From: Bacteroidales bacterium
Lineage (GTDB): Bacteria; Bacteroidota; Bacteroidia; Bacteroidales; Tenuifilaceae
Assembly (NCBI GenBank): GCA_003818205.1
Contig: RPRQ01000022.1
Coordinates: forward strand, 71 to 64,070
DNA: 64,000 nucleotides
Direction: 5' to 3'
Position 1 is the stretch's first letter; each line of letters opens with the position of its first letter. The notes beneath the pieces were generated by a model. That model was not told the origin of the DNA. It saw nothing but the letters and a program-made list of their open reading frames with translations, and did not search any database. Shown in pieces: positions 3,845 to 63,848 of this stretch. The position numbers were made by a program, and so were the translations under genes.

Positions 3845-4130
3845 ATCATTATTAACCGAGAAAAAAATCTAAAATCAATAGGTCGCAGCGATGCTGCTTC
3901 TAGTTGAAATGTAATCGCCTATTCTACAAATAGTTCGCAGCGATGCTGCTTTTCTATAGTCGCATAGCGACGACCTATTTGTAGTAATTAGAGAAAAATC
4001 AAATTCAAGCCCCATTAGGCCTGCCGCCTGCCTGCCGGTAGGCAGGGTAGGCAGGGGTGACCTATACATAGAATGTAGTAATATCAAGTATTTCATGAAT
4101 TGTATAGTATTTTAGTCGGTCAGTAGTGAT
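3845..4130. mobile_element. MITE-like repeat, copy B (complete, about 286 bp) with nested GC-rich palindrome at 4017-4056
   Basis: The termini are atcattattaaccgag (left) and the reverse complement of tagtcggtcagtagtgat (right), giving about 13/16 inverted identity. Inside are three gcagcgatgctgc/gtcgcatagcgac stem-loop units. AAAAT is present on both flanks. Confidence 0.65.
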
Positions 4131-23650: not shown

Positions 23651-24471
23651 AGTTTGAGTAAAACTACCACCGGCTGAGCCAGTGGTTTTAATATCAGAGC
23701 CCCCTAAAGAGGGGAAATCAATTATTCTCATCATAACGTTCTTCATCTTCTTGACATTTTACATACCGCCTAAAACTCGCATTGGGAATACACATGCTAG
23801 CGTTTAATTCCTTAAACGACATTGATATATAATTATTGCTTATCATAAGGGCTAGGTTTTGAGCAAGCGGGTGGGAACGGCATCCGATGCCCGAAGGGCG
23901 AACTCAGCGAAGCTAAAACGGTGAACCAGAGCATGCCCTGATCGTAGGCAGGAAGCGAGAGGCAGCATTGCTTCGATTTGAACTTTTTTTGTTTCAAGAC
24001 AAAAAAAGGAAGGGGGCAGGGTCAAAGTCCCATTGGATTTTAGTCGGACAATAATGATTTTAAATAATCAATAACTCAAAAAAATGAAGTATATTTCAAC
24101 AAACAAAAAAGGAAACTATTCAGCAGTAGTCGAATTGAACAAAAACCACTGAAACACAGCCCGTCCCGATGTATCGGGAGTGGCAATTATAAAAAACGAC
24201 TGAGTATCATACGAAATATATAAAAATACGAACCTGCCCGCCGAGCTTAGGCAGGCGTGTCTCTGCGATGAGTAGTTACAAAATATAAACCGAAATCATT
24301 AATAATTGTTATGGCTATTGCAGCATCACCTCATAAAACAAGCCGAATTAAAGAAAGGTTTATAGAATGCTAAATGTAAACATCCAAATGAACAATTCAT
24401 CGTGGTTTCTTTTGGCATTATTATTCCAACGGGAAATACTTCATATATTTATCTACAGATATTAATTGTCT

Positions 24472-25698
24472 ATGAGTGAACTTGTAAAAATATTGGTTGC
24501 AGATGATTCGCCGTCTATTCAGCTATCGATTCAGAGCATGCTTATGGCAGATCAGTCTAACAAGTATTTAATACATAATGTTAATGATGGAAGGCAGGCC
24601 TGTATTATGGCTTTAAATGAAAGACCAGACCTTATTTTAATAGACATTGAAATGCCTGTTATGGATGGTATTGATGCCATAAAGAAAATAAAAACACACA
24701 ACCTTTTAAAAGATATCCCGATTATTGTTATGTCATCGAGTCGCAAATTTCAGGAGGCATTTATAGCTGGAGTCGATGATTTTTTGATTAAGCCTTTTAA
24801 TCAATACGAATTATTGCTCCGAATACAGCTTAATCTAAAGTTAGCCAATATCTCTGCTGAGTTAAAAAATCAGAATGAATTGCTAGTATTACAAAAGCAG
24901 GAGGTTACTCAGCAAAAAGAATTAATTGAAAAGCAACAAATAGATTTACTCTCGGGCATACGTTATGCAAGCTATATACAGAAAGCCATATTGCCAGAAG
25001 ATGTTCTTATTGATGAATTGTTTTCTTCGAATTTTATTCTTAACAAACCTAGAAGTATTGTTAGCGGAGATTTTTATTGGGTTACCCAAAAGAACGATCT
25101 TAAGTTTTTTGCTGTAGGAGACTGTACTGGACACGGTATTTCGGGAGCACTAATGACAATGGCAGGTATTGCTTTCTTAAACGAGATTGTTAATGATTAC
25201 AACGAGTACGAAGCAGATAAAATATTAAACGAGTTACGTTTAAGGGTTGAAAAACTTCTACATCAAAGAGGTACAGCAGGTGAAGCCTCTAATGGTATGG
25301 ATATTGCCCTTTGTGTTTATAACAGCAAAAAACGAATAATTCAATATGCTGGTGCAAATAATCCAATTTATATTATACATGCTGATAAATCATTAGATGT
25401 CTTTAAAGCCGACCGAATGCCTGTTGGTATTCATTTTAATCATGAACGTCCCTTTACTAGTAAAGAATGTATAATTAGTCAAGGTGATGAGGTATATCTA
25501 TTCTCAGATGGTTTTCCTGATCAATTTGGTGGATCAAACGGACAAAAATTCAGATATGATCAGTTTCGTGAACTTCTTATCAGGTGCTCTAGTTCACCTA
25601 TGAATGAACAGCTAAAGATATTGGAAAACACTCTCGATGATTGGATGATAGGATTTGAGCAAATAGATGACATCTTAGTTATGGGTATAAAATTTTAG
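24472..25698 (+). CDS. Response-regulator receiver fused to a PP2C/SpoIIE phosphatase (RsbU-like)
   Basis: The REC domain shows ILVADDS, LILIDIEMPVMDG and KP. The PP2C domain shows VSGDFYWV, GDCTGHGISGA, LFSDGFPDQ and DDILVMGIKF. ATG at 24472 is preferred over the tracked TTG at 24466. Confidence 0.85.
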   Translation: MSELVKILVADDSPSIQLSIQSMLMADQSNKYLIHNVNDGRQACIMALNERPDLILIDIEMPVMDGIDAIKKIKTHNLLKDIPIIVMSSSRKFQEAFIAGVDDFLIKPFNQYELLLRIQLNLKLANISAELKNQNELLVLQKQEVTQQKELIEKQQIDLLSGIRYASYIQKAILPEDVLIDELFSSNFILNKPRSIVSGDFYWVTQKNDLKFFAVGDCTGHGISGALMTMAGIAFLNEIVNDYNEYEADKILNELRLRVEKLLHQRGTAGEASNGMDIALCVYNSKKRIIQYAGANNPIYIIHADKSLDVFKADRMPVGIHFNHERPFTSKECIISQGDEVYLFSDGFPDQFGGSNGQKFRYDQFRELLIRCSSSPMNEQLKILENTLDDWMIGFEQIDDILVMGIKF

Positions 25699-25780
25699 TT
25701 GTCAATTTTTTCAACTAATTGTTAGCAACAAGTGTAAAAGGCAAGTACGAAACATGAAAATAAACCTATAAGTTGATTTA

Positions 25781-26296
25781 ATGAAAATTGATTGTATCTT
25801 TGCAGAAAATTTATTCACCTTTCATTACGCGAAAGAAAAGAACAATGAGTATGAAAGATTAATGGATATATGGACAGATGTTAGTTATTTACATGCTTAT
25901 GCAAAAAGAAACAAGGTAAAAAATATTTATGGATTTATTGATGACATATTGAAGTGTGCTGAAAAAATTCAAGACTTTTTGGACAACATTAGCCAAAACA
26001 AAGAACCTTTTGGTTCTTACTTTGAACCTTTACAACAATCAGAAAATGACAACAAAGTGCTCGCACTTCAAAAAGGAAAAATACGAAAAAATCAACTTCG
26101 TTTGTATGCAGTTAAAATAGATGCTAATTGTTTTGTAATAACAGGAGGTGCAATAAAAATGAGTCAAAAAATGGAAGACCACCCTGATACCGCAAATGAA
26201 TTGGAAAAATTGAAAAAAGCAAGAATCTATTTAAACCAAAATGGTGTATTTGACGAGGATTCTTTTTTTGAACTATTAAATGAAGAATATGACTAA
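25781..26296 (+). CDS. Putative toxin (RelE/HigB, Gp49-like C-terminal half) of a three-gene cassette
   Basis: LRLYAVKIDANCFVITGGAIKMSQKMEDHPDTANELEKLKKARIYL resembles the R.lY....g..v.L.g..KK....p..ei..A motif of Gp49/HigB-type toxins. The gene overlaps the next one by 17 nt. Confidence 0.4.
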   Translation: MKIDCIFAENLFTFHYAKEKNNEYERLMDIWTDVSYLHAYAKRNKVKNIYGFIDDILKCAEKIQDFLDNISQNKEPFGSYFEPLQQSENDNKVLALQKGKIRKNQLRLYAVKIDANCFVITGGAIKMSQKMEDHPDTANELEKLKKARIYLNQNGVFDEDSFFELLNEEYD

Positions 26297-26750
26297 CAAA
26301 GAAAAGTTTTTAGCCTTAGTTTCTAAAGAAAAAAACAACACTTTAGAAAAAAACAAAGAGCGAATCAAAAACAGAGCAATGTTGAGTGAATCGCAACAAA
26401 TTGCTATGAAGGTATTGAAGAAATTAGACGAGTTAGGGTGGACCCAAAAAAACTTGGCAAAAGCAATGGAAGTAAGTCCGCAACATGTGAATAAAATAGT
26501 TAGCGGAAAGGAAAACCTTACAATTGAAACTCAAATTAAATTGCAAAATATTCTTGATATTCCAGTATTAGCCAGTTATTATGAATCACGTTTGAAATCA
26601 ATTGAAGAATTGATTCTAACAGTTGAAAAGAAAGTTGAGCGCATCTATGCTACAACAAATCTAGTTCCTGTTAATTATCAAGATTCAAGAAAAATTAAAA
26701 TGGAATACGATACTTTATCAGGTGAGTACTCATATCAATTAGCTGTATAA
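26280..26750 (+). CDS. XRE-family HTH protein (putative antitoxin with a ~65-aa C-terminal extension)
   Basis: The HTH reads LGWTQKNLAKAMEVSPQHVNKIVSGKENLTIETQIKLQNIL. It shares one base between its stop codon and the next ATG. Confidence 0.7.
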   Translation: MKNMTNKEKFLALVSKEKNNTLEKNKERIKNRAMLSESQQIAMKVLKKLDELGWTQKNLAKAMEVSPQHVNKIVSGKENLTIETQIKLQNILDIPVLASYYESRLKSIEELILTVEKKVERIYATTNLVPVNYQDSRKIKMEYDTLSGEYSYQLAV

Positions 26751-27196
26751 TGAAAAAAGAAAATGCACAAATAGGTTTTGCGTTGTTAGGTATTAAGACT
26801 GAGCAATTTGCAGTTTTCGAAGAAAATTATAACCCTAAACAAGAAACCGGTTTGGGTTTAGAAATTCAATACAAAATAAACAAATCCAACAACCAAATTG
26901 GCGTTTTTTTAGGATTTGAATTTATTCAATCAAAAAAAGTATTTATTAAAGTAATTGTGAGTTGTCACTTCAAAATTGAAGAAAATTCTTGGAAGAGTTT
27001 TCTTCAAGAAAAAGAAACTAAGTTAGTTGTTCCAAGAGGTTTTCTTGAACACCTAGCAATGATTGCTACAGGTACAACTAGAGGTGTTTTATTTGCAAAA
27101 ACAGAAGGAACCGAGTTTTCAAAATTTATCATCCCAACTTTAAATGTTGCCAAAATGATAAAAGAAGATGCCATATTCGAAATAGGGAATGAATAG
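26750..27196 (+). CDS. Possible SecB-like chaperone
   Basis: At 148 aa, the order of segments parallels E. coli SecB. FALLGIKTEQFAVFE lines up with FQIQRIYTKDISFE. The central strands are VFIKVIVSCHFKIE. FIIPTLNVAKMI lines up with LAPVNFDALF. This is similarity by eye only. Confidence 0.4.
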   Translation: MKKENAQIGFALLGIKTEQFAVFEENYNPKQETGLGLEIQYKINKSNNQIGVFLGFEFIQSKKVFIKVIVSCHFKIEENSWKSFLQEKETKLVVPRGFLEHLAMIATGTTRGVLFAKTEGTEFSKFIIPTLNVAKMIKEDAIFEIGNE

Positions 27197-27459
27197 TTGC
27201 AATTTACGAATTAATTAAAACACTCGTTGCCAACATAGATTCACTGATTATGAAAGAGATGTAATACCAAACTGCTAATATGATATTGAAAATAATTATG
27301 TTAGCGAATCGGTATAAATTAGAAAATCTGTGAACAAAGCGAAGCGATTTCATGAACACCTTATAAAAAATGACAATTTGTGAATAATCAGTGGCAATAT
27401 TTACTGTAAAGACAGACTCTAATTAACTGGTAGATTTTTTTTGTATTTTAAACTATTTT

Positions 27460-29313
27460 ATGAGAACAGTTAAAGGACTTGTTTTGAGATTATGGTTTCC
27501 AAAAATTAATTTTCAGAAGCGAAGATTTGCGAGTTCTCTTTTATATCCTGGGGCATTTTTTCAGCTACCTATAACCCAATTATTATTACTCTTACTCCTT
27601 GTTTTGCCAATATTTGTCAATGGGCAAGAAAGTATAAATGAATTTGAAGTTTTAGCCAATGAGTATCTAAATCAAGGGAAATACAAACAAGCTGCGGAAT
27701 CTTTCAACAAATCAGGCTACGATTATCGGAATAGAGGGAATAAAAGGAAGGCTGCCGATGTATTTGAGAAAGCGTATAAACTTTTCGATAAAGAGGGTAA
27801 CGATAATGTATCAATCGAAATCAGTAACAACCTAGGCATAGTATATCTCGACGAAAATAAATACGCAAACGCATACACTGCTTTCTCCAATACGTTAAAA
27901 CATGCTCGAAGAGTAAAGGATACGACCGAAATATTTAATTCATTAATCAATGTAGGTAGTTTAGCTATTGAATTATCATTATATTCCAATGCTATTGATA
28001 AAGTGAATGAAGCGCTAGGGATAGCAAAAGAACGGAACAATAATAAATATTTAAAAGAATGTTACAGTTTACTTGCAAGGAGCTATGAGAGAATTGGAAA
28101 TACTTCAAGTGCAAACGAGTTTTACAAGCTATACTCGATTATTGATCAGCAAATTAATAATATTGAGCCTGAAGAAATAAGTTCAGCTTCGAATAATAAG
28201 TTTAGCATATTGAAAAAAGAGAGGCAGATAGCAGAAATTCGACCAAAATTTAAAAATGGAGAATTGAGGTTAACTCCAGATTCAATGGCAAGGATATCAC
28301 AATTACTTCAACAAATGTTAACGCAAATAGGGCTTCGTAACTCACAGCTCAGACAGAAAGAGATACAACTACAGTACGAGAAACATATACGCAGAACCCT
28401 TATTATTGGAATTATTGTAGTTTTAATCTTCCTGGTCATACTCGGTTTTTTACTCAGACAGAAACAGCTCTATAATAAAATATTAAAGCAGCAAAAGGAG
28501 GAAATTACGCAACAGCGAAATAAACTCGATGTTCAGAATAAAAAAATAACAGACAGTATTTACTTCGGGTTACGTATTCAACAGGCTATTTTACCAAGAA
28601 TGAAAGAATTAAATAAGGTCTTTGAAACATTACTTATTTATAAGGCAAAGGATATAGTGTCAGGCGATTTCTATTGGTATCACGAATCAATTATTGATGA
28701 AGTAACATATCATTTTATTGCTGTAGTAGATTGTACTGGGCATGGCGTGCCAGGCGCTTTTATGTCCATTATTGGAAACAGGATACTTAACGAGATTATA
28801 ATAGAACGTAGAATTTTTAACCCCTCTGAAATTTTAATTGAAGTCAATAAGCTTCTCAGGAGGGATCTGGAACAGGACAACAATAAAACAATAAGCGGAA
28901 TGGATATCGCTCTGTGTCGGATTTCTTTTAACAATGGATATAACGAACTTGCTTTTTCAGGAGCTAAACGTGAGATTATCATATATAAAGCGAATACTGG
29001 TACACAGGAAATAATACATGGAGATAAATTATCGATTGGTTGCTTAACATCTGGGAAAACAAATATCTTTAATGAAACGAAAAGAGATATTGATGCTGGT
29101 GATATTATTTTTATGTTTACCGATGGTATTATCGACCAGCCAAATATAGAAAGAAAACGATTTGGCACAGAACGATTTATGAACTTTATAGCTGAAAATA
29201 TTGATTCCTCTATGGATAATATTGAATCGTCTCTTGAGTCATTAATTGACAATTATAAGGAGTCGGAAGAACAGAGGGATGATATTACTGTTTTGGGTAT
29301 TAAATTGAAATAG
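27460..29313 (+). CDS. Transmembrane TPR-sensor PP2C/SpoIIE phosphatase (SiaA/RsbU-like)
   Basis: It has a signal/anchor, TPR-like repeats and a TM helix (TLIIGIIVVLIFLVILGFLL). PP2C motifs follow: VSGDFYWY, VDCTGHGVPGA, MFTDGIIDQ and DDITVLGIKL. Confidence 0.85.
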   Translation: MRTVKGLVLRLWFPKINFQKRRFASSLLYPGAFFQLPITQLLLLLLLVLPIFVNGQESINEFEVLANEYLNQGKYKQAAESFNKSGYDYRNRGNKRKAADVFEKAYKLFDKEGNDNVSIEISNNLGIVYLDENKYANAYTAFSNTLKHARRVKDTTEIFNSLINVGSLAIELSLYSNAIDKVNEALGIAKERNNNKYLKECYSLLARSYERIGNTSSANEFYKLYSIIDQQINNIEPEEISSASNNKFSILKKERQIAEIRPKFKNGELRLTPDSMARISQLLQQMLTQIGLRNSQLRQKEIQLQYEKHIRRTLIIGIIVVLIFLVILGFLLRQKQLYNKILKQQKEEITQQRNKLDVQNKKITDSIYFGLRIQQAILPRMKELNKVFETLLIYKAKDIVSGDFYWYHESIIDEVTYHFIAVVDCTGHGVPGAFMSIIGNRILNEIIIERRIFNPSEILIEVNKLLRRDLEQDNNKTISGMDIALCRISFNNGYNELAFSGAKREIIIYKANTGTQEIIHGDKLSIGCLTSGKTNIFNETKRDIDAGDIIFMFTDGIIDQPNIERKRFGTERFMNFIAENIDSSMDNIESSLESLIDNYKESEEQRDDITVLGIKLK

Positions 29314-29321
29314 ATAGAAAA

Positions 29322-29843
29322 GTGGCTTTATCAAGTACATATAACGATTTATTAATCTCGTATTACGGGCCTTTCAGTATGCGAATAATCTCCACAATTG
29401 GTAAACATCTCACTGAAAACATAAATGCATCAGAAATTACGAAGATGAAGCTGTATAGGGTGTTTATTGAACTCTGTCAAAATGTTGCACGCTATTCAGC
29501 TGAAAGACATGTTTTACTTGATAGCTCAATTATTGGTGTAGGAACCATTCATATTCAAAATAACGACTTGTATTTCAAATGCACAACAGTAAATAGGATT
29601 TTAAGCGAACATCAAAATGTATTAATAAAGAATTGTCGTGAAATTAACAGCTCTACAAAAGAAGACCTGAAAAAAAGAAAAGAAAAGTTTCGAAAAGAAT
29701 CTACTATTCTTGATACTGGAGCTCACATTGGTTTAATAGCAGTATGCTTGTATTCAGAAAATCAATTTGAATTCGACGTTACAGATAACCCTGAAAACAG
29801 TGCTACCTATTTTTCAATTACTGCAACTATCAATAAAACATAG
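29322..29843 (+). CDS. SiaB-like small protein kinase (RsbW/GHKL-type)
   Basis: Its position between a PP2C gene and a DUF1987 gene fits. It has an N-box-like FIELCQNVARYS and a G-box-like LDTGAHIGL. The GTG start lies 8 nt after the upstream stop, so the start is uncertain. Confidence 0.55.
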   Translation: MALSSTYNDLLISYYGPFSMRIISTIGKHLTENINASEITKMKLYRVFIELCQNVARYSAERHVLLDSSIIGVGTIHIQNNDLYFKCTTVNRILSEHQNVLIKNCREINSSTKEDLKKRKEKFRKESTILDTGAHIGLIAVCLYSENQFEFDVTDNPENSATYFSITATINKT

Positions 29844-29918
29844 AATGCAACGATCATATCTTTTCAAAATATAAATTATCTTTACAAAACGGAAAGAAAT
29901 CATTAAATAACAAGTAGA

Positions 29919-30308
29919 ATGGAAAGCCTATATATCAATAGTTATCCCGATTTGGTTTTTTTCCCCATTGTTGATTTTAAATACCAAACTGGGGTGTGTG
30001 AAATTTCAGGTGAATCGTACATGGAGGATACTTATAGTTTTTATGAACCTGTAATTATCTGGCTAAGGGAATATATGCAGGAGAAAAAACCAATCATCTT
30101 TAATGTTAAGTTAACCTATTTCAATACCAGCTCATCCAGATTTATACTTGAAATGCTTGATTTATTCAAAAAATACCTGAATGAAGGGAATCAAGTTATT
30201 GTTAACTGGTACTATAAAAAGGACGATCCCGATATGTTAACAGAAATCAACGAATTAATCGATGAGTCTGGAGTCGACATCAATATTTATACAGTAACCC
30301 TTCAATAA
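29919..30308 (+). CDS. SiaC-family / DUF1987 regulatory phosphoprotein
   Basis: At 129 aa, it carries the hallmark KLTYFNTSSSRFILEML and the C-terminal WYYKKDDPDM. Confidence 0.75.
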   Translation: MESLYINSYPDLVFFPIVDFKYQTGVCEISGESYMEDTYSFYEPVIIWLREYMQEKKPIIFNVKLTYFNTSSSRFILEMLDLFKKYLNEGNQVIVNWYYKKDDPDMLTEINELIDESGVDINIYTVTLQ

Positions 30309-56106: not shown

Positions 56107-57933
56107 ATGGGAAATCCTTTTAATATTCTTGCTTTTCCTAAAAGAAAAAGTATTCTTATACTTTTGTCAATTATCCTTATATCATTTTCATTTACCTCAG
56201 AAATCTTTGCCCAAAAAGGGTTAACTTGCTTTGTGAAGCTAATTGTACGTAAAAGTGATTCCAGCGGAGCAAAGATTGTTTTATCAAAAAATGGAACTAC
56301 AGTTCAAGAGGTTTTCGCCAAAAAAAGCGGTCGTTTCGAGGTTGTACTTGAATATGGTAGTGTTTTTATCCTCTCATTCGAGAAAAAAGGGTTTGTTTCA
56401 AAGAAAATTGAAATTAATACTACCGTACCTGACCTATTTCCAAAGGATGTAGAGAATATAAAAGATTTTGATGTTGAAATCTTTCCACAAAAAGATGGTG
56501 TAAACGTAATGGTTTATAACAATCCGGTAGGAAAAATTAGATACGAAGAGGCAACAGGCGATTTTGGCTACGATACCGATTACTCGGCTACCATTAAAAA
56601 GCAGATCGATCAGGTTGATAAGGACATGGCTCAAAAGGAGAAGGAGCAGGAGAAGCAAGAAAAAAAGAAGATTGATGATGCTAATAAAGAGAAACTTTTA
56701 GCTGAGGCAAGCCTAAGAAAGGAAGAAACTGAAAAAAAGAAAAAAGCCGAGGAGGAGCAGAAGCAGAAGGAGATAGTACAGCAAAAAGCCATTGCAGAAG
56801 CAAAATTGCTTGCAGAAGTTAAAAAGAAAGAGGAGCAGAAGAAACAAGAGCTTGAGCTAAAGCAAAAGGCTGAGGAGGATGCAAAGAAAAAGGTCGAGGA
56901 GGAGACCCGTTTAAAGGAAGAGGCTCGTAAAAAGGAAGAGGCACGGATAAAGGAAGAGAATGAGAAGCGTATGCTTGCTGAACAAGAAAAGAAGAGAATA
57001 GATGAGGAGAATAAGCTGAAAGAGCAGGAAAAACTTAAAAAAGAGCTGGAAGTAAGACTAGCCGCTGAAACGAAGCTAAAGGAAGAAGCAAAGCAAAGGG
57101 AGCTAGAGCAAAGGAAAAAAGCAGAAGAGGAGGCACGATTAAAAGCCGAAACCGAAGCGAAGCAGAAAGAAGAAGCTATTAAGAGGGCGGAAGAGCTGAA
57201 GAAGAAAACCGAAGAGGAAGTTCGTCTAAAAGCAGAGCAGGAAGCGTTACTAATGGCTGAGAAGAAGAAGCTCGATGAGGAACGGATTAAGGCTGAAAAT
57301 CAGAAAATTCAGCAGGAAAAAAATGAAAGACTTCGGATTGAGCAGGAGAATAAAATAAAAGAGCAGGAGCGGCTAGATAAAGAAGCGGAGGAACGACGAT
57401 TGGCTGAACTAAAGCTTAAAGAAGAAAATCAGAAAAAGATTGAGGAGTCTAGAAAGCAAGCTGAGGAGCTAGCTCTGGTTAAAGCTGCTGAGGAGTCGAA
57501 AAGGGCTGATGAACAGAAAAGAATCGAAAGGGAACGTTTGGAGAAGGAGGATGAGGAACGAAAGGTTCTTGAAGAGAAACGTTTAAGGGAAAAAGAGGAA
57601 ACCGAAAAGAATGAAAAGGAAAGAATGAAGAAGGAGGATGAAGAACGAAAATTGAAGATTATTTCAGAAAAAATTGTTAACGATAGAAAGTATCAGGAAG
57701 CAAAAGATGAAGTATTTAAGGTGATTCCACCTGAAGAGCTTGCTAAAAAGTATTCGAATGAACGCTCCGATGAGGTCACTAAGCTGAAAAGGCTAACCAT
57801 TACCAGAACAGTATTCAACCGAAATAAAGCTCTTACCTTTTATACGAAGGTTGAGCACATATATGGCGGTGTTTACTACTTCAAGGATGCATTCGATATT
57901 TCAGAATGGCAATACAAGAATGATACAAAATAG
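56107..57933 (+). CDS. Membrane-anchored protein with a ~340-aa E/K/R-rich single-alpha-helix-like region
   Basis: An N-terminal hydrophobic anchor is followed by a beta-sandwich-like domain (KIVLSKNGTTVQEVFAKKSGRFEVVLEYGSVFILSFEKKGF). Residues ~175-515 are almost purely E/K/R/A/Q. A ~90-aa C-terminal domain follows. Confidence 0.6.
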   Translation: MGNPFNILAFPKRKSILILLSIILISFSFTSEIFAQKGLTCFVKLIVRKSDSSGAKIVLSKNGTTVQEVFAKKSGRFEVVLEYGSVFILSFEKKGFVSKKIEINTTVPDLFPKDVENIKDFDVEIFPQKDGVNVMVYNNPVGKIRYEEATGDFGYDTDYSATIKKQIDQVDKDMAQKEKEQEKQEKKKIDDANKEKLLAEASLRKEETEKKKKAEEEQKQKEIVQQKAIAEAKLLAEVKKKEEQKKQELELKQKAEEDAKKKVEEETRLKEEARKKEEARIKEENEKRMLAEQEKKRIDEENKLKEQEKLKKELEVRLAAETKLKEEAKQRELEQRKKAEEEARLKAETEAKQKEEAIKRAEELKKKTEEEVRLKAEQEALLMAEKKKLDEERIKAENQKIQQEKNERLRIEQENKIKEQERLDKEAEERRLAELKLKEENQKKIEESRKQAEELALVKAAEESKRADEQKRIERERLEKEDEERKVLEEKRLREKEETEKNEKERMKKEDEERKLKIISEKIVNDRKYQEAKDEVFKVIPPEELAKKYSNERSDEVTKLKRLTITRTVFNRNKALTFYTKVEHIYGGVYYFKDAFDISEWQYKNDTK

Positions 57934-61389: not shown

Positions 61390-61755
61390 ATGGTTTTGCA
61401 TATCACAACTTACAAAGAATGGGAGAAAGCTCAGCAGGAAGGCGAATATACTGCACCCTCCCTTAAATCAGAAGGATTTATTCATTGTTCAACAATAAAA
61501 CAGGCTGTAGATACGGCAAATATATTCTTTCGAGGACAAAATGGATTAGCTCTGCTTTGTATTGATGAAAATCAATTAGAATCCATATGCAAATATGAAC
61601 CACCAGCTGCTGGTGGTCAACAGAATCCAAGTGTTGGTAATCTATTTCCGCATATATATGGTCCAATCAACGTATCTGCTGTGGTAAAAGTAGTTGATTT
61701 CCCTACAAATGAAAATGGCTTTTTTGTACTACCCGAGGAGGTGCTTAACCTCTGA
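61390..61755 (+). CDS. DUF952 protein
   Basis: W.KAQ..G.Y....L..EGFIHCST and LFPHIYGPIN are present. Confidence 0.7.
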   Translation: MVLHITTYKEWEKAQQEGEYTAPSLKSEGFIHCSTIKQAVDTANIFFRGQNGLALLCIDENQLESICKYEPPAAGGQQNPSVGNLFPHIYGPINVSAVVKVVDFPTNENGFFVLPEEVLNL

Positions 61756-61760
61756 AAAAG

Positions 61761-62019
61761 GATATTACAGATCATTATTAACCGAGAAAAAATCTAATTT
61801 TAAAAGGTCGCAGCAATGCTACTTCTAGCTAAAATATAATCGTCTATTCTACAAATAGTTCGCAGCAATGCTGCTTTTTAAAGTCGCATAGCGATGACCT
61901 ATTTGTTGTAATTTTCATTAAAACGAAATCCAAGCCCCATTGGGGGCGACCTATACATTGTATGTAGTAATATCAAGTATTTCATGAATTTATAATATTT
62001 TAGTCGGTTAGTAGTGATT
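61761..62019. mobile_element. MITE-like repeat, copy C (complete, about 259 bp, no nested palindrome)
   Basis: The termini are atcattattaaccgag and the reverse complement of tagtcggttagtagtgat. It is collinear with copy B except for the missing cctgcc..ggcagg block. Confidence 0.65.
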
Positions 62020-62334
62020 ACCGATAAATATTTAGTGAATAAGAAATAGTTTATTGAAGGTTGGTTGTTCGGTTTAAACACCCCAACATCGTTTGTTAAG
62101 AAATTGTTAAATACACCAAAGTATAAGCATTTTTATTTTATGTTCTAAACGTATTGAGGACAAGCTTTTAATCGGCTCAAACACATTAATTAAACATAAA
62201 ATTTGTTGATTCGGCATCATTTTTTGAGCAACTCACCAAAAGGATTACTTTTGATGTTTGATAATCATCCCAATATTTATAAATTTGTTTCTCAAAGAAA
62301 TTCAAATTTTCATAGCATCTAATCAGAAAAAACC

Positions 62335-62721
62335 ATGGACGTTATTAGCATTAAAGGAACTCAGGAAACACCAGAAGTATTGCTCGATAGCAGTAGGGGG
62401 ATTTTTGAATTGTCTGGCAAATCTTTACCCGAAGATGTAAAAGAGTTCTATAACCCCATACTCAAATGGTTTGATGAGTATTCGAAAAATCCGAATTCCT
62501 CTACAATCCTTAAAATAAAGATGGACTACTTTAATACTGCTTCATCAAAAATGATTCTCGAACTTTTCGAAGTGGTAAAAAAAGTTCATTCTGGTGGTCA
62601 CGAAACCATTGTTGAATGGTACTATCAGGAGGATGATGAGGATATGCAGGATGCTGGTCAGGATTATTCTGATTTAATTGAGATGCCCTTCAAGCTCATA
62701 AGCTACCAATCGGTCCGATAG
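62335..62721 (+). CDS. SiaC-family / DUF1987 protein, tandem paralogue 1
   Basis: GKSLPEDVKEFYNPILKWFDEYS, KMDYFNTASSKMILELF and WYYQEDDEDM are present. Confidence 0.75.
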   Translation: MDVISIKGTQETPEVLLDSSRGIFELSGKSLPEDVKEFYNPILKWFDEYSKNPNSSTILKIKMDYFNTASSKMILELFEVVKKVHSGGHETIVEWYYQEDDEDMQDAGQDYSDLIEMPFKLISYQSVR

Positions 62722-62784
62722 CACTATATTTTCAATGAACCATATTAATTTGGTATTCAATGATTTCAAATTATATATAAGCTA

Positions 62785-63162
62785 ATGGATAATCTTCTCG
62801 TTGAAGCAACTGATATTACCCCTAGGATTGAATTCAGCAAACATACTAATACGTTTAAAATAATAGGTAAATCACTACCTGAGGATGTTAAAAATTTTTA
62901 TAACCCTATAATTCAGTGGTTTGATACCTATTCGTCGCAACCAAACCCTGAAACACATCTTATCCTTGAGTTTGAGTACTTCAACACATCATCATCAAAG
63001 ATGATCCTTATTCTCTTAAACAAACTACGCGATATTCATCGAAGAGGATTTAAGGTTTTGGTTACCTGGTCCTATCCTTCGCACGATGCTGAAATTGAAG
63101 AGGCCGGTGAAGAACTTGAAGAATTGTTAAATATTCCGTTTCAATTTATAGCAAAAGATTAA
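62785..63162 (+). CDS. SiaC-family / DUF1987 protein, tandem paralogue 2
   Basis: GKSLPEDVKNFYNPIIQWFDTYS and EFEYFNTSSSKMILILL are present. Confidence 0.75.
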   Translation: MDNLLVEATDITPRIEFSKHTNTFKIIGKSLPEDVKNFYNPIIQWFDTYSSQPNPETHLILEFEYFNTSSSKMILILLNKLRDIHRRGFKVLVTWSYPSHDAEIEEAGEELEELLNIPFQFIAKD

Positions 63163-63224
63163 TATTTTTATTGTTATTTTTGTAATAATCACTATATTTA
63201 GAATTCAGTTTTTATTAAATAATT

Positions 63225-63626
63225 ATGGAAAAATTAGTTCTATCAGAAACAAAGGATTCACCTAGCGTTCTTCTAGATCCTAAAACAAATATTTTTAGCA
63301 TTGCTGGTGTATGCCACCCTGAGAATGTAACAAAGTTTTATGAGCCAATAATTGACTGGATTGAAAAGTACAAAGCAGAAGTCAAGGTTACAAAAAACTC
63401 GAAGCCAATCGAACTCTCCCTGTTTTTTAAGTATATTAACTCTGCATCTTATAAGTATTTACTTACTTTTCTCCAGCTTATCGAAGGGTTTACAACAATT
63501 GGAATGCCCGTGAACGTTATTTGGTATTATGAGCCCGACGATGTTGATATGCACGAGGCAGGTGTTGAAATTTTCGACTTTTCAGGTGTGAAGCTACCCT
63601 ATGTTTGTAAGGTAAAAGCTGATTAA
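63225..63626 (+). CDS. SiaC-family / DUF1987 protein, tandem paralogue 3 (divergent)
   Basis: FYEPIIDWIEKY and WYYEPDDVDM are present. FFKYINSASYKYLLTFL replaces the YFNTSSS segment. Confidence 0.65.
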   Translation: MEKLVLSETKDSPSVLLDPKTNIFSIAGVCHPENVTKFYEPIIDWIEKYKAEVKVTKNSKPIELSLFFKYINSASYKYLLTFLQLIEGFTTIGMPVNVIWYYEPDDVDMHEAGVEIFDFSGVKLPYVCKVKAD

Positions 63627-63649: not shown

Positions 63650-63680
63650 AAAAGCAGCCTTTTCCGGCTGCTTTTCTTTT
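63650..63680. terminator. Bidirectional hairpin terminator between the DUF1987 genes and the tRNA genes
   Basis: It reads aaaagcagcc ttttcc ggctgctttt, with A- and T-runs on both sides. Confidence 0.7.
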
Positions 63681-63681
63681 G

Positions 63682-63754
63682 TGATCCAGCTGGGATTCGA
63701 ACCCAGGACCCCATCCTTAAAAGGGATGTGCTCTACCAACTGAGCTACTGAATC
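63682..63754 (-). tRNA. tRNA-Lys (anticodon UUU)
   Basis: The reverse complement reads GATTCAGTAGCTCAGTTGGTAGAGCACATCCCTTTTAAGGATGGGGTCCTGGGTTCGAATCCCAGCTGGATCA. It has a 7-bp acceptor stem, anticodon stem CATCC/GGATG, loop CTTTTAA and T-loop TTCGAAT. Confidence 0.9.
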
Positions 63755-63775
63755 GATAGGATTTCGTTTCTTTCG

Positions 63776-63848
63776 TGATCCAGCTGGGATTCGAACCCAG
63801 GACCCCATCCTTAAAAGGGATGTGCTCTACCAACTGAGCTACTGAATC
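63776..63848 (-). tRNA. tRNA-Lys (anticodon UUU), second tandem copy
   Basis: Its sequence is identical to 63682-63754 as far as I can read. Confidence 0.9.

Follow-up and report, generated by a model that had tools for sequence, protein, structure and literature searches.

An ordered trio of SiaC-family genes apart from linked kinases in Tenuifilaceae-like Bacteroidales, and its possible role as trans-controlled phospho-switch adaptors

We report that a 64,000-nucleotide stretch of DNA from a Bacteroidales bacterium of the family Tenuifilaceae (contig RPRQ01000022.1 of assembly GCA_003818205.1; hereafter the window, with positions counted from its first nucleotide) carries at 62335-63626 three consecutive genes, C1, C2 and C3, whose products are clear members of the known SiaC family. 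Judged by sequence comparison, the trio is an ancient, ordered three-gene operon of anciently diverged SiaC paralogues, in which a position equivalent to the phospho-acceptor of Pseudomonas aeruginosa SiaC is retained throughout. We describe the family membership and fold of the three proteins, the alignment of the acceptor site, the anatomy of the operon, its conservation and the selection acting on it, and the absence of linked kinase genes. In our preferred interpretation, which we give a probability of about 0.5, C1, C2 and C3 would be three phosphorylation-gated adaptors controlled in trans, with targets other than diguanylate cyclases; phosphorylation itself, control in trans and target binding are here inferred by analogy with the Pseudomonas protein.

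A hidden Markov model made from the trio and from C0, a further SiaC-like protein encoded 32 kb upstream, identified exactly four SiaC-like open reading frames (ORFs) in the window, and all four exceed the gathering score of 24.5 bits for Pfam family PF09345 (SiaC, formerly DUF1987): C1 with 139.4 bits (E 5.7e-41), C2 with 123.1 bits (E 6.4e-36), C3 with 98.3 bits (E 3.1e-28) and C0 with 122 bits (E 1.4e-35). The 150-bit cut-off of the NCBIfam SiaC equivalog NF038265 was not reached by C1 (89.9 bits), C2 (77.7) or C3 (61.8). The PDB chains of P. aeruginosa SiaC (6KKO, 6KKP, 7E6G and 6K4F) align unambiguously with C1 at E 7.7e-15, with C2 at E 4.5e-12 and with C3 at E 7.6e-12, the alignments being nearly full-length for C1 and C2 and, for C1 against 6KKO, gap-free over residues 4-122. 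The AlphaFold model of C3 has a predicted local distance difference test score (pLDDT) of 92.3, and in Foldseek its only significant matches were the SiaC entries 6KKP, 6KKO, 7E6G and 6K4F (template modelling score, TM, 0.82-0.92; root-mean-square deviation 1.6-2.0 Å); beyond these the same search gave nothing better than E 0.1, with weak matches to STAS-containing SLC26/SulP proteins at E 0.1-0.7. The SiaC fold is thus predicted for C3 from its model and for C1 and C2 from their alignment to the SiaC chains. With C1 and C2 sharing 42% identity and every other pair among C0-C3 31-34%, the paralogues are old and a recent duplication is not their origin. A preliminary description of this DNA had reported three ORFs of 125-133 amino acids (aa) with spacers of 62-63 nucleotides (nt), their DUF1987/SiaC membership together with that of C0, the motifs GKSLPEDVK(E/N)FYNPI..WFD.YS and YFNT(A/S)SSKMIL in C1 and C2, and YINSASY in C3; each of these features was recovered, the ORFs at exactly the same coordinates, with spacers of 63 nt between C1 and C2 and 62 nt between C2 and C3.

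In P. aeruginosa the SiaC peptide LLYLNTSSIK carries T68, which is phosphorylated by SiaB and dephosphorylated by SiaA, as mapped by mass spectrometry (PMC7647112). The Thr/Thr/Ser column put forward in the preliminary description as the phospho-acceptor aligns with this T68, so that the misalignment named there as refuting did not occur; it corresponds to Thr68 in C1 and C2 and to Ser73 in C3, and Ser73 is the first residue of helix 73-91 in the C3 model; sequence and model together place an acceptor equivalent to SiaC T68 at the predicted N-terminus of helix alpha2 in all three proteins. To follow this column and other properties of the trio we surveyed one genome per GTDB species, which gave 80 loci; the counts below refer to 48 arrays with 144 array proteins, including those of 47 other assemblies. 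At the acceptor column Thr was present in 48/48 arrays at position 1 and in 48/48 at position 2, and Ser in 47/47 at position 3, and all of the 185 gathered family sequences, bar one truncated copy, have either Thr or Ser there. The surrounding motif, Y-x-N-[TS]-[AS]-[ST], which contains the hydroxyl residue, is invariant.

The three-gene array was found in 45 of the 80 loci, representing at least 45 species, and in two further assemblies, mostly of Tenuifilaceae-like Bacteroidales, and every array has its three genes in identical order on a single strand. Homologues of C1 number more than 1,500 in the protein collection and include approximately 30 clusters at 84-93% identity. When each array protein was paired with its nearest homologue at a different locus, that homologue held the same array position in 144/144 cases, and a neighbour-joining tree gave, as a point estimate, three clean clades, one for each position. 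Bootstrap recovery was 41/50 for position 3, and 7/50 and 13/50 for positions 1 and 2, respectively, which are poorly recovered because single-copy relatives interleave; with these values we do not claim strict monophyly of every array position. The ratio of nonsynonymous to synonymous substitution rates (dN/dS) against the nearest relatives was approximately 0.03 for C1, 0.06-0.13 for C2 and 0.05-0.07 for C3, values that are rough since dS is saturated. In its nearest relatives C1 is 88-92% identical and so more conserved than most of the flanking proteins, which span 50-94% (78-84% for the neighbouring molybdenum oxidoreductase). Across the 48 arrays 39% of the columns of C1-type proteins, 28% of C2-type and 17% of C3-type are at least 95% invariant, those of C1 taking in the whole alpha3 region, a target contact in SiaC, and residues fixed in a position-specific manner lie on the predicted binding face (SiaC positions 31, 34, 63, 68, 71, 73 and 110). 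These comparisons indicate that all three genes are under strong purifying selection, very strong in the case of C1, and that their function is retained.

As to operon anatomy, 44 of the 48 arrays have a TAnnTTTG box whose start lies 44-66 nt before the first gene, irrespective of which gene is found upstream; in the same position test the box was present for 11% of other genes of the same loci, with 1.7% expected from motif density. In the window the pair formed by TTTG and TAAATTTG (Table 1) fits the Bacteroidetes -33/-7 promoter consensus. Spacers within the arrays are short (medians 32 and 24 nt), and the gene before the array is no less than 75 nt away, mostly 130-290 nt and, in the window, 579 nt. 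No terminator-like sites are present between C1, C2 and C3 of the window, and a strong intrinsic terminator hairpin follows C3. Because it has its own housekeeping-type promoter box, short spacers and a single terminator at its end, the array is probably an autonomous tricistronic unit, in which we observe the anatomy while transcription and promoter function are predicted from it. An upstream regulatory RNA was considered and discarded, Rfam having given two tRNAs only around the array at E values up to 1. The C2-C3 spacer holds a second TAnnTTTG match (TATTTTTG, 63175-63182), 43 nt ahead of the C3 ATG. With a spacer of just 10-30 nt in most relatives, conservation of this match is unlikely, and it may be either a chance match or a lineage-specific internal promoter. 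A DUF952 gene (61390-61755) lies between the Fe-S/DmsC gene and the array in this lineage only, being absent in the close relatives L003 and L007-L010 (L numbers denote our loci), and explains the unusually long upstream gap.

Table 1. Coordinates of the array, its signals and acceptor codons, and of the candidate partner module in the window.
Feature	Position	Strand	Description
Candidate trans-acting module	24466..30308	+	Response-regulator (RR)-SpoIIE 24466-25698; tetratricopeptide-repeat (TPR)-SpoIIE, SiaA-like, 27460-29313; SiaB-family kinase 29322-29843; C0-type SiaC 29919-30308
Putative Bacteroidetes-type promoter	62257..62287	+	TTTG 62257-62260, 19-nt spacer, TAAATTTG 62280-62287; 48-55 nt upstream of C1 ATG; read from the sequence
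C1 (position-1 paralogue)	62335..62721	+	128 aa, ATG start; most conserved SiaC-family member of the trio
Thr68 codon ACT of C1	62536..62538	+	Gap-free alignment to SiaC T68
C2 (position-2 paralogue)	62785..63162	+	125 aa, ATG start; SiaC family
Thr68 codon ACA of C2	62986..62988	+	Alignment to SiaC T68
C3 (position-3 paralogue)	63225..63626	+	133 aa, ATG start; most divergent of the trio; 5-residue insertion before strand beta4
Ser73 codon TCT of C3	63441..63443	+	Alignment to SiaC T68; N-terminus of predicted helix 73-91
Intrinsic terminator hairpin	63650..63675	+	10-bp stem, then a T run; 24 nt past the C3 stop

The genes flanking the array depend on the clade. Upstream are either a lysine/glutamate-rich secreted protein, a molybdopterin oxidoreductase and an Fe-S/DmsC protein, or 2-oxoacid dehydrogenase E2/E1 and a flavodoxin; downstream are either convergent tRNA-Lys(UUU) genes and then a DUF4252/extracytoplasmic-function (ECF) sigma cluster, or phosphofructokinase, amylase and a flavodiiron protein. 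Since linkage of the flanks follows the clades it reflects synteny, and a conserved neighbour was rejected as a target because no functional partner can be deduced from it. The possibility of a hidden SiaB beside the arrays was likewise rejected after a five-round jackhmmer search over all locus ORFs had returned none. Among the window ORFs scanned no GGDEF proteins were present, and a crude motif scan of 530 ORFs within 10 kb of the arrays gave one chance GG[DE]EF-like motif, in a 181-aa non-cyclase. To our knowledge, cyclic di-GMP signalling is sparse in the Bacteroidota.

Outside the arrays, C1 has its closest relatives (52-60% identity) in one kinase-linked and one orphan group. In the first, SiaC directly follows the SpoIIE and SiaB genes at 10 other Bacteroidota loci, mostly labelled Flavobacteriales (L057, L059, L060, L064, L066, L070, L075, L080, L082 and L086), so that the C1 subtype is kinase-linked elsewhere. 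Four of the ten have a tandem SiaC pair (L057, L064, L066 and L080), as does L140 after SiaB, and in 6/10 the SpoIIE-SiaB-SiaC genes are followed by a gene for a 1028-aa ABC-type protein. This is an ATPase/permease fusion, seen with two small proteins in L057, L060, L066, L075 and L080 at about 10.4-14.8 kb, and the fusion and its two companions are a candidate non-cyclase output. With respect to gene arrangement, in L059 one SiaC comes after SiaB paralogues, three in tandem, and three PP2C genes (1.2-10.4 kb), and alternative SiaB/SiaC arrangements occur in the metagenome loci L131, L133-L135, L138-L140 and L149, for example SiaB-SiaC-SiaB-SiaC in L134 and L138, SiaB-SiaC-SiaB-SiaC-SiaC followed by PP2C in L140, and also SiaB-SiaB-SiaC; kinase duplication therefore occurs besides substrate duplication. 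The second group consists of orphan single SiaC genes amid housekeeping genes of Salinivirgaceae and other Bacteroidales (L056, L058, L062, L067-L069, L076-L079, L083-L085 and L081), flanked by genes for an M48-like peptidase and an alpha/beta hydrolase, or by dapF/htrA, and in this group Ser is as frequent as Thr at the acceptor position. In L067, L076, L078 and L085 (Salinivirgaceae-type) and in L081 a TPR-SpoIIE gene lies approximately 6 kb from the orphan SiaC, beside a gene for a large OmpA-family protein and without SiaB. The orphan SiaC of L081 and the array of L031 belong to the same metagenome-assembled genome.

The nearest kinase and phosphatase genes to the trio are 32 kb upstream, on the same strand and contig, which agrees with the preliminary description in that none adjoins the trio. 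A phmmer search gave one SiaB-like ORF in the window, a DUF6272 protein scoring 107.9 bits against the NCBIfam model SiaB_fam_kinase (NF038262; cut-off 85); the earlier count of four SiaC-like proteins to one SiaB-like protein in 64 kb therefore stands as a ratio for the window, and it says nothing about the whole genome. We found two PP2C phosphatases where a single one had been assumed, the TPR-SpoIIE and the RR-SpoIIE. All three types of partner-switching component are thus encoded in the window: a SiaB-family kinase, two SpoIIE/PP2C phosphatases and four SiaC-like proteins. In 7/7 contexts of SiaA homologues TPR-SpoIIE and SiaB are accompanied by exactly one C0-type SiaC, and in 5/7 RR-SpoIIE precedes them, so these modules may have two phosphatase inputs. 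The C0-type proteins form a separate orthologous group, whose members share 61-67% identity among themselves and 31-34% with C1-C3 of the window. Metagenomic SiaB loci with sufficient sequence beyond the kinase numbered 33; the kinase is followed by one SiaC in 27 of them, by two in 1, by three in 0 and by none in 5. The module is the only candidate partner in view and probably not a universal one, and its link to the trio is conjectural.

Concerning the module itself, the RR-SpoIIE has an N-terminal response-regulator receiver domain, and its PP2C domain matches the SiaA model at E 8e-49 (TPR-SpoIIE, E 8e-43). The two phosphatase genes, adjacent in other genomes, are here split by a three-gene cassette at 25781-27196 (171 aa; a 156-aa HTH_3/HigA-like protein; 148 aa), which matches the PADLOC candidate defence system PDC-M64 (A/B, B/C and C; E 7e-6, 1e-12 and 3e-13). 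A count of SiaB homologues was dropped as evidence for rarity: a word-indexed search gave 9 matches and missed at least the 174-aa SiaB of L089, and SiaB proteins 42-53% identical were found beside SiaA homologues. Because this search is insensitive for a protein as short as SiaB, the 617-aa SiaA was used as query instead.

By analogy with P. aeruginosa SiaC, C1, C2 and C3 would each hold a target protein with the alpha2/alpha3 face while unphosphorylated and let go of it once Thr68, Thr68 and Ser73, respectively, is phosphorylated; a SiaB-type kinase and one or more PP2C phosphatases encoded elsewhere would determine in trans whether the residue is phosphorylated. We favour such a trans-controlled phospho-switch because the Thr/Thr/Ser pattern is strict, the nearest homologues are kinase-linked and the genome encodes a SiaB and two PP2C proteins. 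Several observations weigh against it. No SiaB or SpoIIE/PP2C genes were found near the array in the 47 other assemblies, with flanks of up to 10 kb on each side. Moreover, in the SiaC-SiaD crystal structure the T68 hydroxyl hydrogen-bonds the target and N67, T68 and S69 form the binding face (PMC8457831), and since the hydroxyl itself contacts SiaD, conservation of Thr/Ser is no proof of phosphorylation. SiaB modules also carry their own SiaC, close to one per kinase. Finally, among 5.8 billion proteins no homologue of the window SiaA exceeds 55% identity (approximately 55 homologues lie at 44-55%), while relatives with about 80% average protein identity, as estimated from flanking proteins, which are 72-94% identical in the nearest of them, keep the array; the array, 84-93% conserved, hence persists in lineages in which this module is not conserved. 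Part of this evidence would also suit adaptors that work independently of phosphorylation, possibly as a hetero-oligomer, with the conserved Thr/Ser serving target contact and helix capping and no switch: T68, N67 and S69 contact SiaD directly, linked kinases are missing from the 47 assemblies, co-expression is suggested by an unvarying gene order with short spacers, and position-specific residues lie on the predicted binding face. However, only Thr or Ser occurs in the approximately 184 sequences that cover the site, Asn, Asp, Gly and Ala being absent even though capping or hydrogen bonding would tolerate them, and close homologues are kinase-linked elsewhere in the Bacteroidota, with a SiaB kinase and two PP2C proteins encoded in this genome. 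We therefore regard phosphorylation-independent adaptors as unlikely, albeit as the alternative to be taken most seriously.

The phospho-switch interpretation leaves the source of control to be considered, and the preliminary description had suggested that one kinase/phosphatase pair could govern several outputs. In its explicit form the window SiaA/SiaB pair (27460-29843) would act on C0, C1, C2 and C3, that is, one sensor with four outputs, which would be in keeping with a sole SiaB in 64 kb, an acceptor kept in all four proteins, location on the same strand and contig 32 kb apart, and tandem SiaC pairs right after SiaB in other Bacteroidota (the five loci named above). Such an arrangement is nevertheless unlikely in our view and finds no support in the comparison, as the array is conserved apart from kinases and SiaB modules come with a dedicated C0-type SiaC: wherever it is found the module is a complete 1:1 unit, its C0 being only distantly related to C1-C3, and the window SiaA lacks close homologues while the array is conserved in approximately 30 protein clusters. 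In addition, contigs as long as those of the relatives L009/L010, which reach 54-70 kb around the arrays, gave no SiaA match at or above 45% identity, and the module region has a G+C content of 32.0% compared with a window average of 37.3%. One SiaA/SiaB-module context has an NCBI contig accession (JAOAFU01), the prefix of which matches no array contig. Overall the comparison leans against a dedicated link between the trio and the window kinase/phosphatase. The preliminary description also offered a role as decoys or buffers, in which the orphan copies would merely soak up kinase or phosphatase activity and have no targets of their own; although the acceptor motif is kept and no output gene is adjacent, this is hardly credible because of the purifying selection on C1, which is 88-92% identical where neighbouring enzymes are 72-88%, has the dN/dS of approximately 0.03 and the large share of invariant columns given above, and because passive sinks would hardly be maintained for so long as three distinct subtypes in an unchanging order. 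Lastly, by analogy with the four SiaC molecules that sit on repeated motifs of the SiaD stalk in Pseudomonas, C1, C2 and C3 might act jointly on one non-cyclase coiled-coil or helical partner, each reading a different motif, as a hetero-oligomeric switch, whose output would be set by the combined Thr68/Thr68/Ser73 phosphorylation, possibly read by RR-gated and TPR-gated phosphatases. We consider this quite improbable; if true, it would be a previously undescribed signalling hub.

With regard to the wider meaning of the trans-controlled phospho-switch, SiaC-family proteins have been studied solely in Pseudomonas, where one copy switches one diguanylate cyclase, and our full-text literature search gave one paper that mentions DUF1987, no account of the family in Bacteroidota and none of an ordered, kinase-unlinked SiaC trio. 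The family is widespread in Bacteroidota without a linked cyclase, and one lineage keeps three specialised, kinase-unlinked copies as an operon. Should these be trans-controlled phospho-switches, they would point to an unexplored layer of serine/threonine signalling in anaerobic Bacteroidales; should they not be phosphorylated, the SiaC family would have a second, kinase-independent mode. Either outcome would be useful and neither overturns current understanding; the result will hardly surprise a specialist and identifies no output.

Some further features near the array are recorded here. The 608-aa protein encoded at 56107-57933 has a signal peptide, a very long stretch that is rich in Lys/Glu and probably forms a coiled coil, and no match in Pfam or NCBIfam; its homologues are encoded upstream of the array in 23 loci, directly so in L030, L046, L048 and L053. 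A short palindromic element, TCGCAGCRATGCTGC, occurs five times in the window compared with 0.16 expected by chance (sites 3883-3949, 23962-23976 and 61808-61874), twice as a pair 52 nt apart, one of the pairs following closely on the DUF952 gene, ahead of the array. The element resembles a dispersed repeat of the repetitive extragenic palindromic (REP) kind or small terminator hairpins. Two tandem tRNA-Lys(UUU) genes (63681-63848, reverse strand) are convergent with the array and seemingly share its terminator, the hairpin of which is A-rich on its 5' side and may for that reason also end the tRNA-Lys transcripts. This arrangement is kept in the clade that has the DUF4252/ECF-sigma cluster after the array (L003, L004, L023, L039 and L042), of which L023 comes from Perlabentimonas gracilis, a carrier that is in culture. 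The corresponding JGI and Logan contigs stop within a few hundred bases of the tRNA-Lys pair.

SiaC is a structural relative of the STAS antagonists, with the acceptor at the start of helix alpha2 (PMC7647112; PMC8457831). Compared with antagonists of the RsbV/SpoIIAA type, the trio belongs to a different sequence family. In partner-switching systems several STAS antagonist paralogues can share one kinase, and it is familiar there for paralogues to be encoded as orphans, apart from the kinase. Within the Bacteroidota, the SpoIIE-SiaB-SiaC operons of Flavobacteriales and others have a first SiaC that, outside the arrays, is nearest to C1 (52-58% identity), and there SiaC follows phosphatase and kinase whereas here the trio stands alone; the Bacteroidales C0-type module involves the same family in the same group of organisms, but C0 occurs only singly and only linked to a kinase. 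Pseudomonas SiaC, when unphosphorylated, attaches to the coiled-coil stalk of SiaD via helices alpha2 and alpha3 and the N67/T68/S69 patch, with four SiaC molecules on two repeated motifs of the SiaD dimer, and can no longer bind once T68 is phosphorylated (PMC8457831; PMC7278518). It has been proposed that DUF1987 proteins generally modulate adjacent proteins (PMC8457831), which does not suit the array because its neighbours are not conserved. Like P. aeruginosa SiaC (PA0170), the members of the trio belong to the same Pfam family, are of similar length and have the same predicted fold (C3 model), the Y-x-N-T-S-S motif and an acceptor at the N-terminus of helix alpha2; in the hydrophobic pocket beside T68, W95 is invariant and the remaining positions are hydrophobic. 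They are, on the other hand, only 24-27% identical to SiaC, and unlike the Pseudomonas SiaABCD system, with its co-operonic SiaA and SiaB, its adjacent SiaD-type GGDEF cyclase and its single SiaC, the trio stands without these partners and consists of three specialised paralogues, the third of which has Ser instead of Thr.

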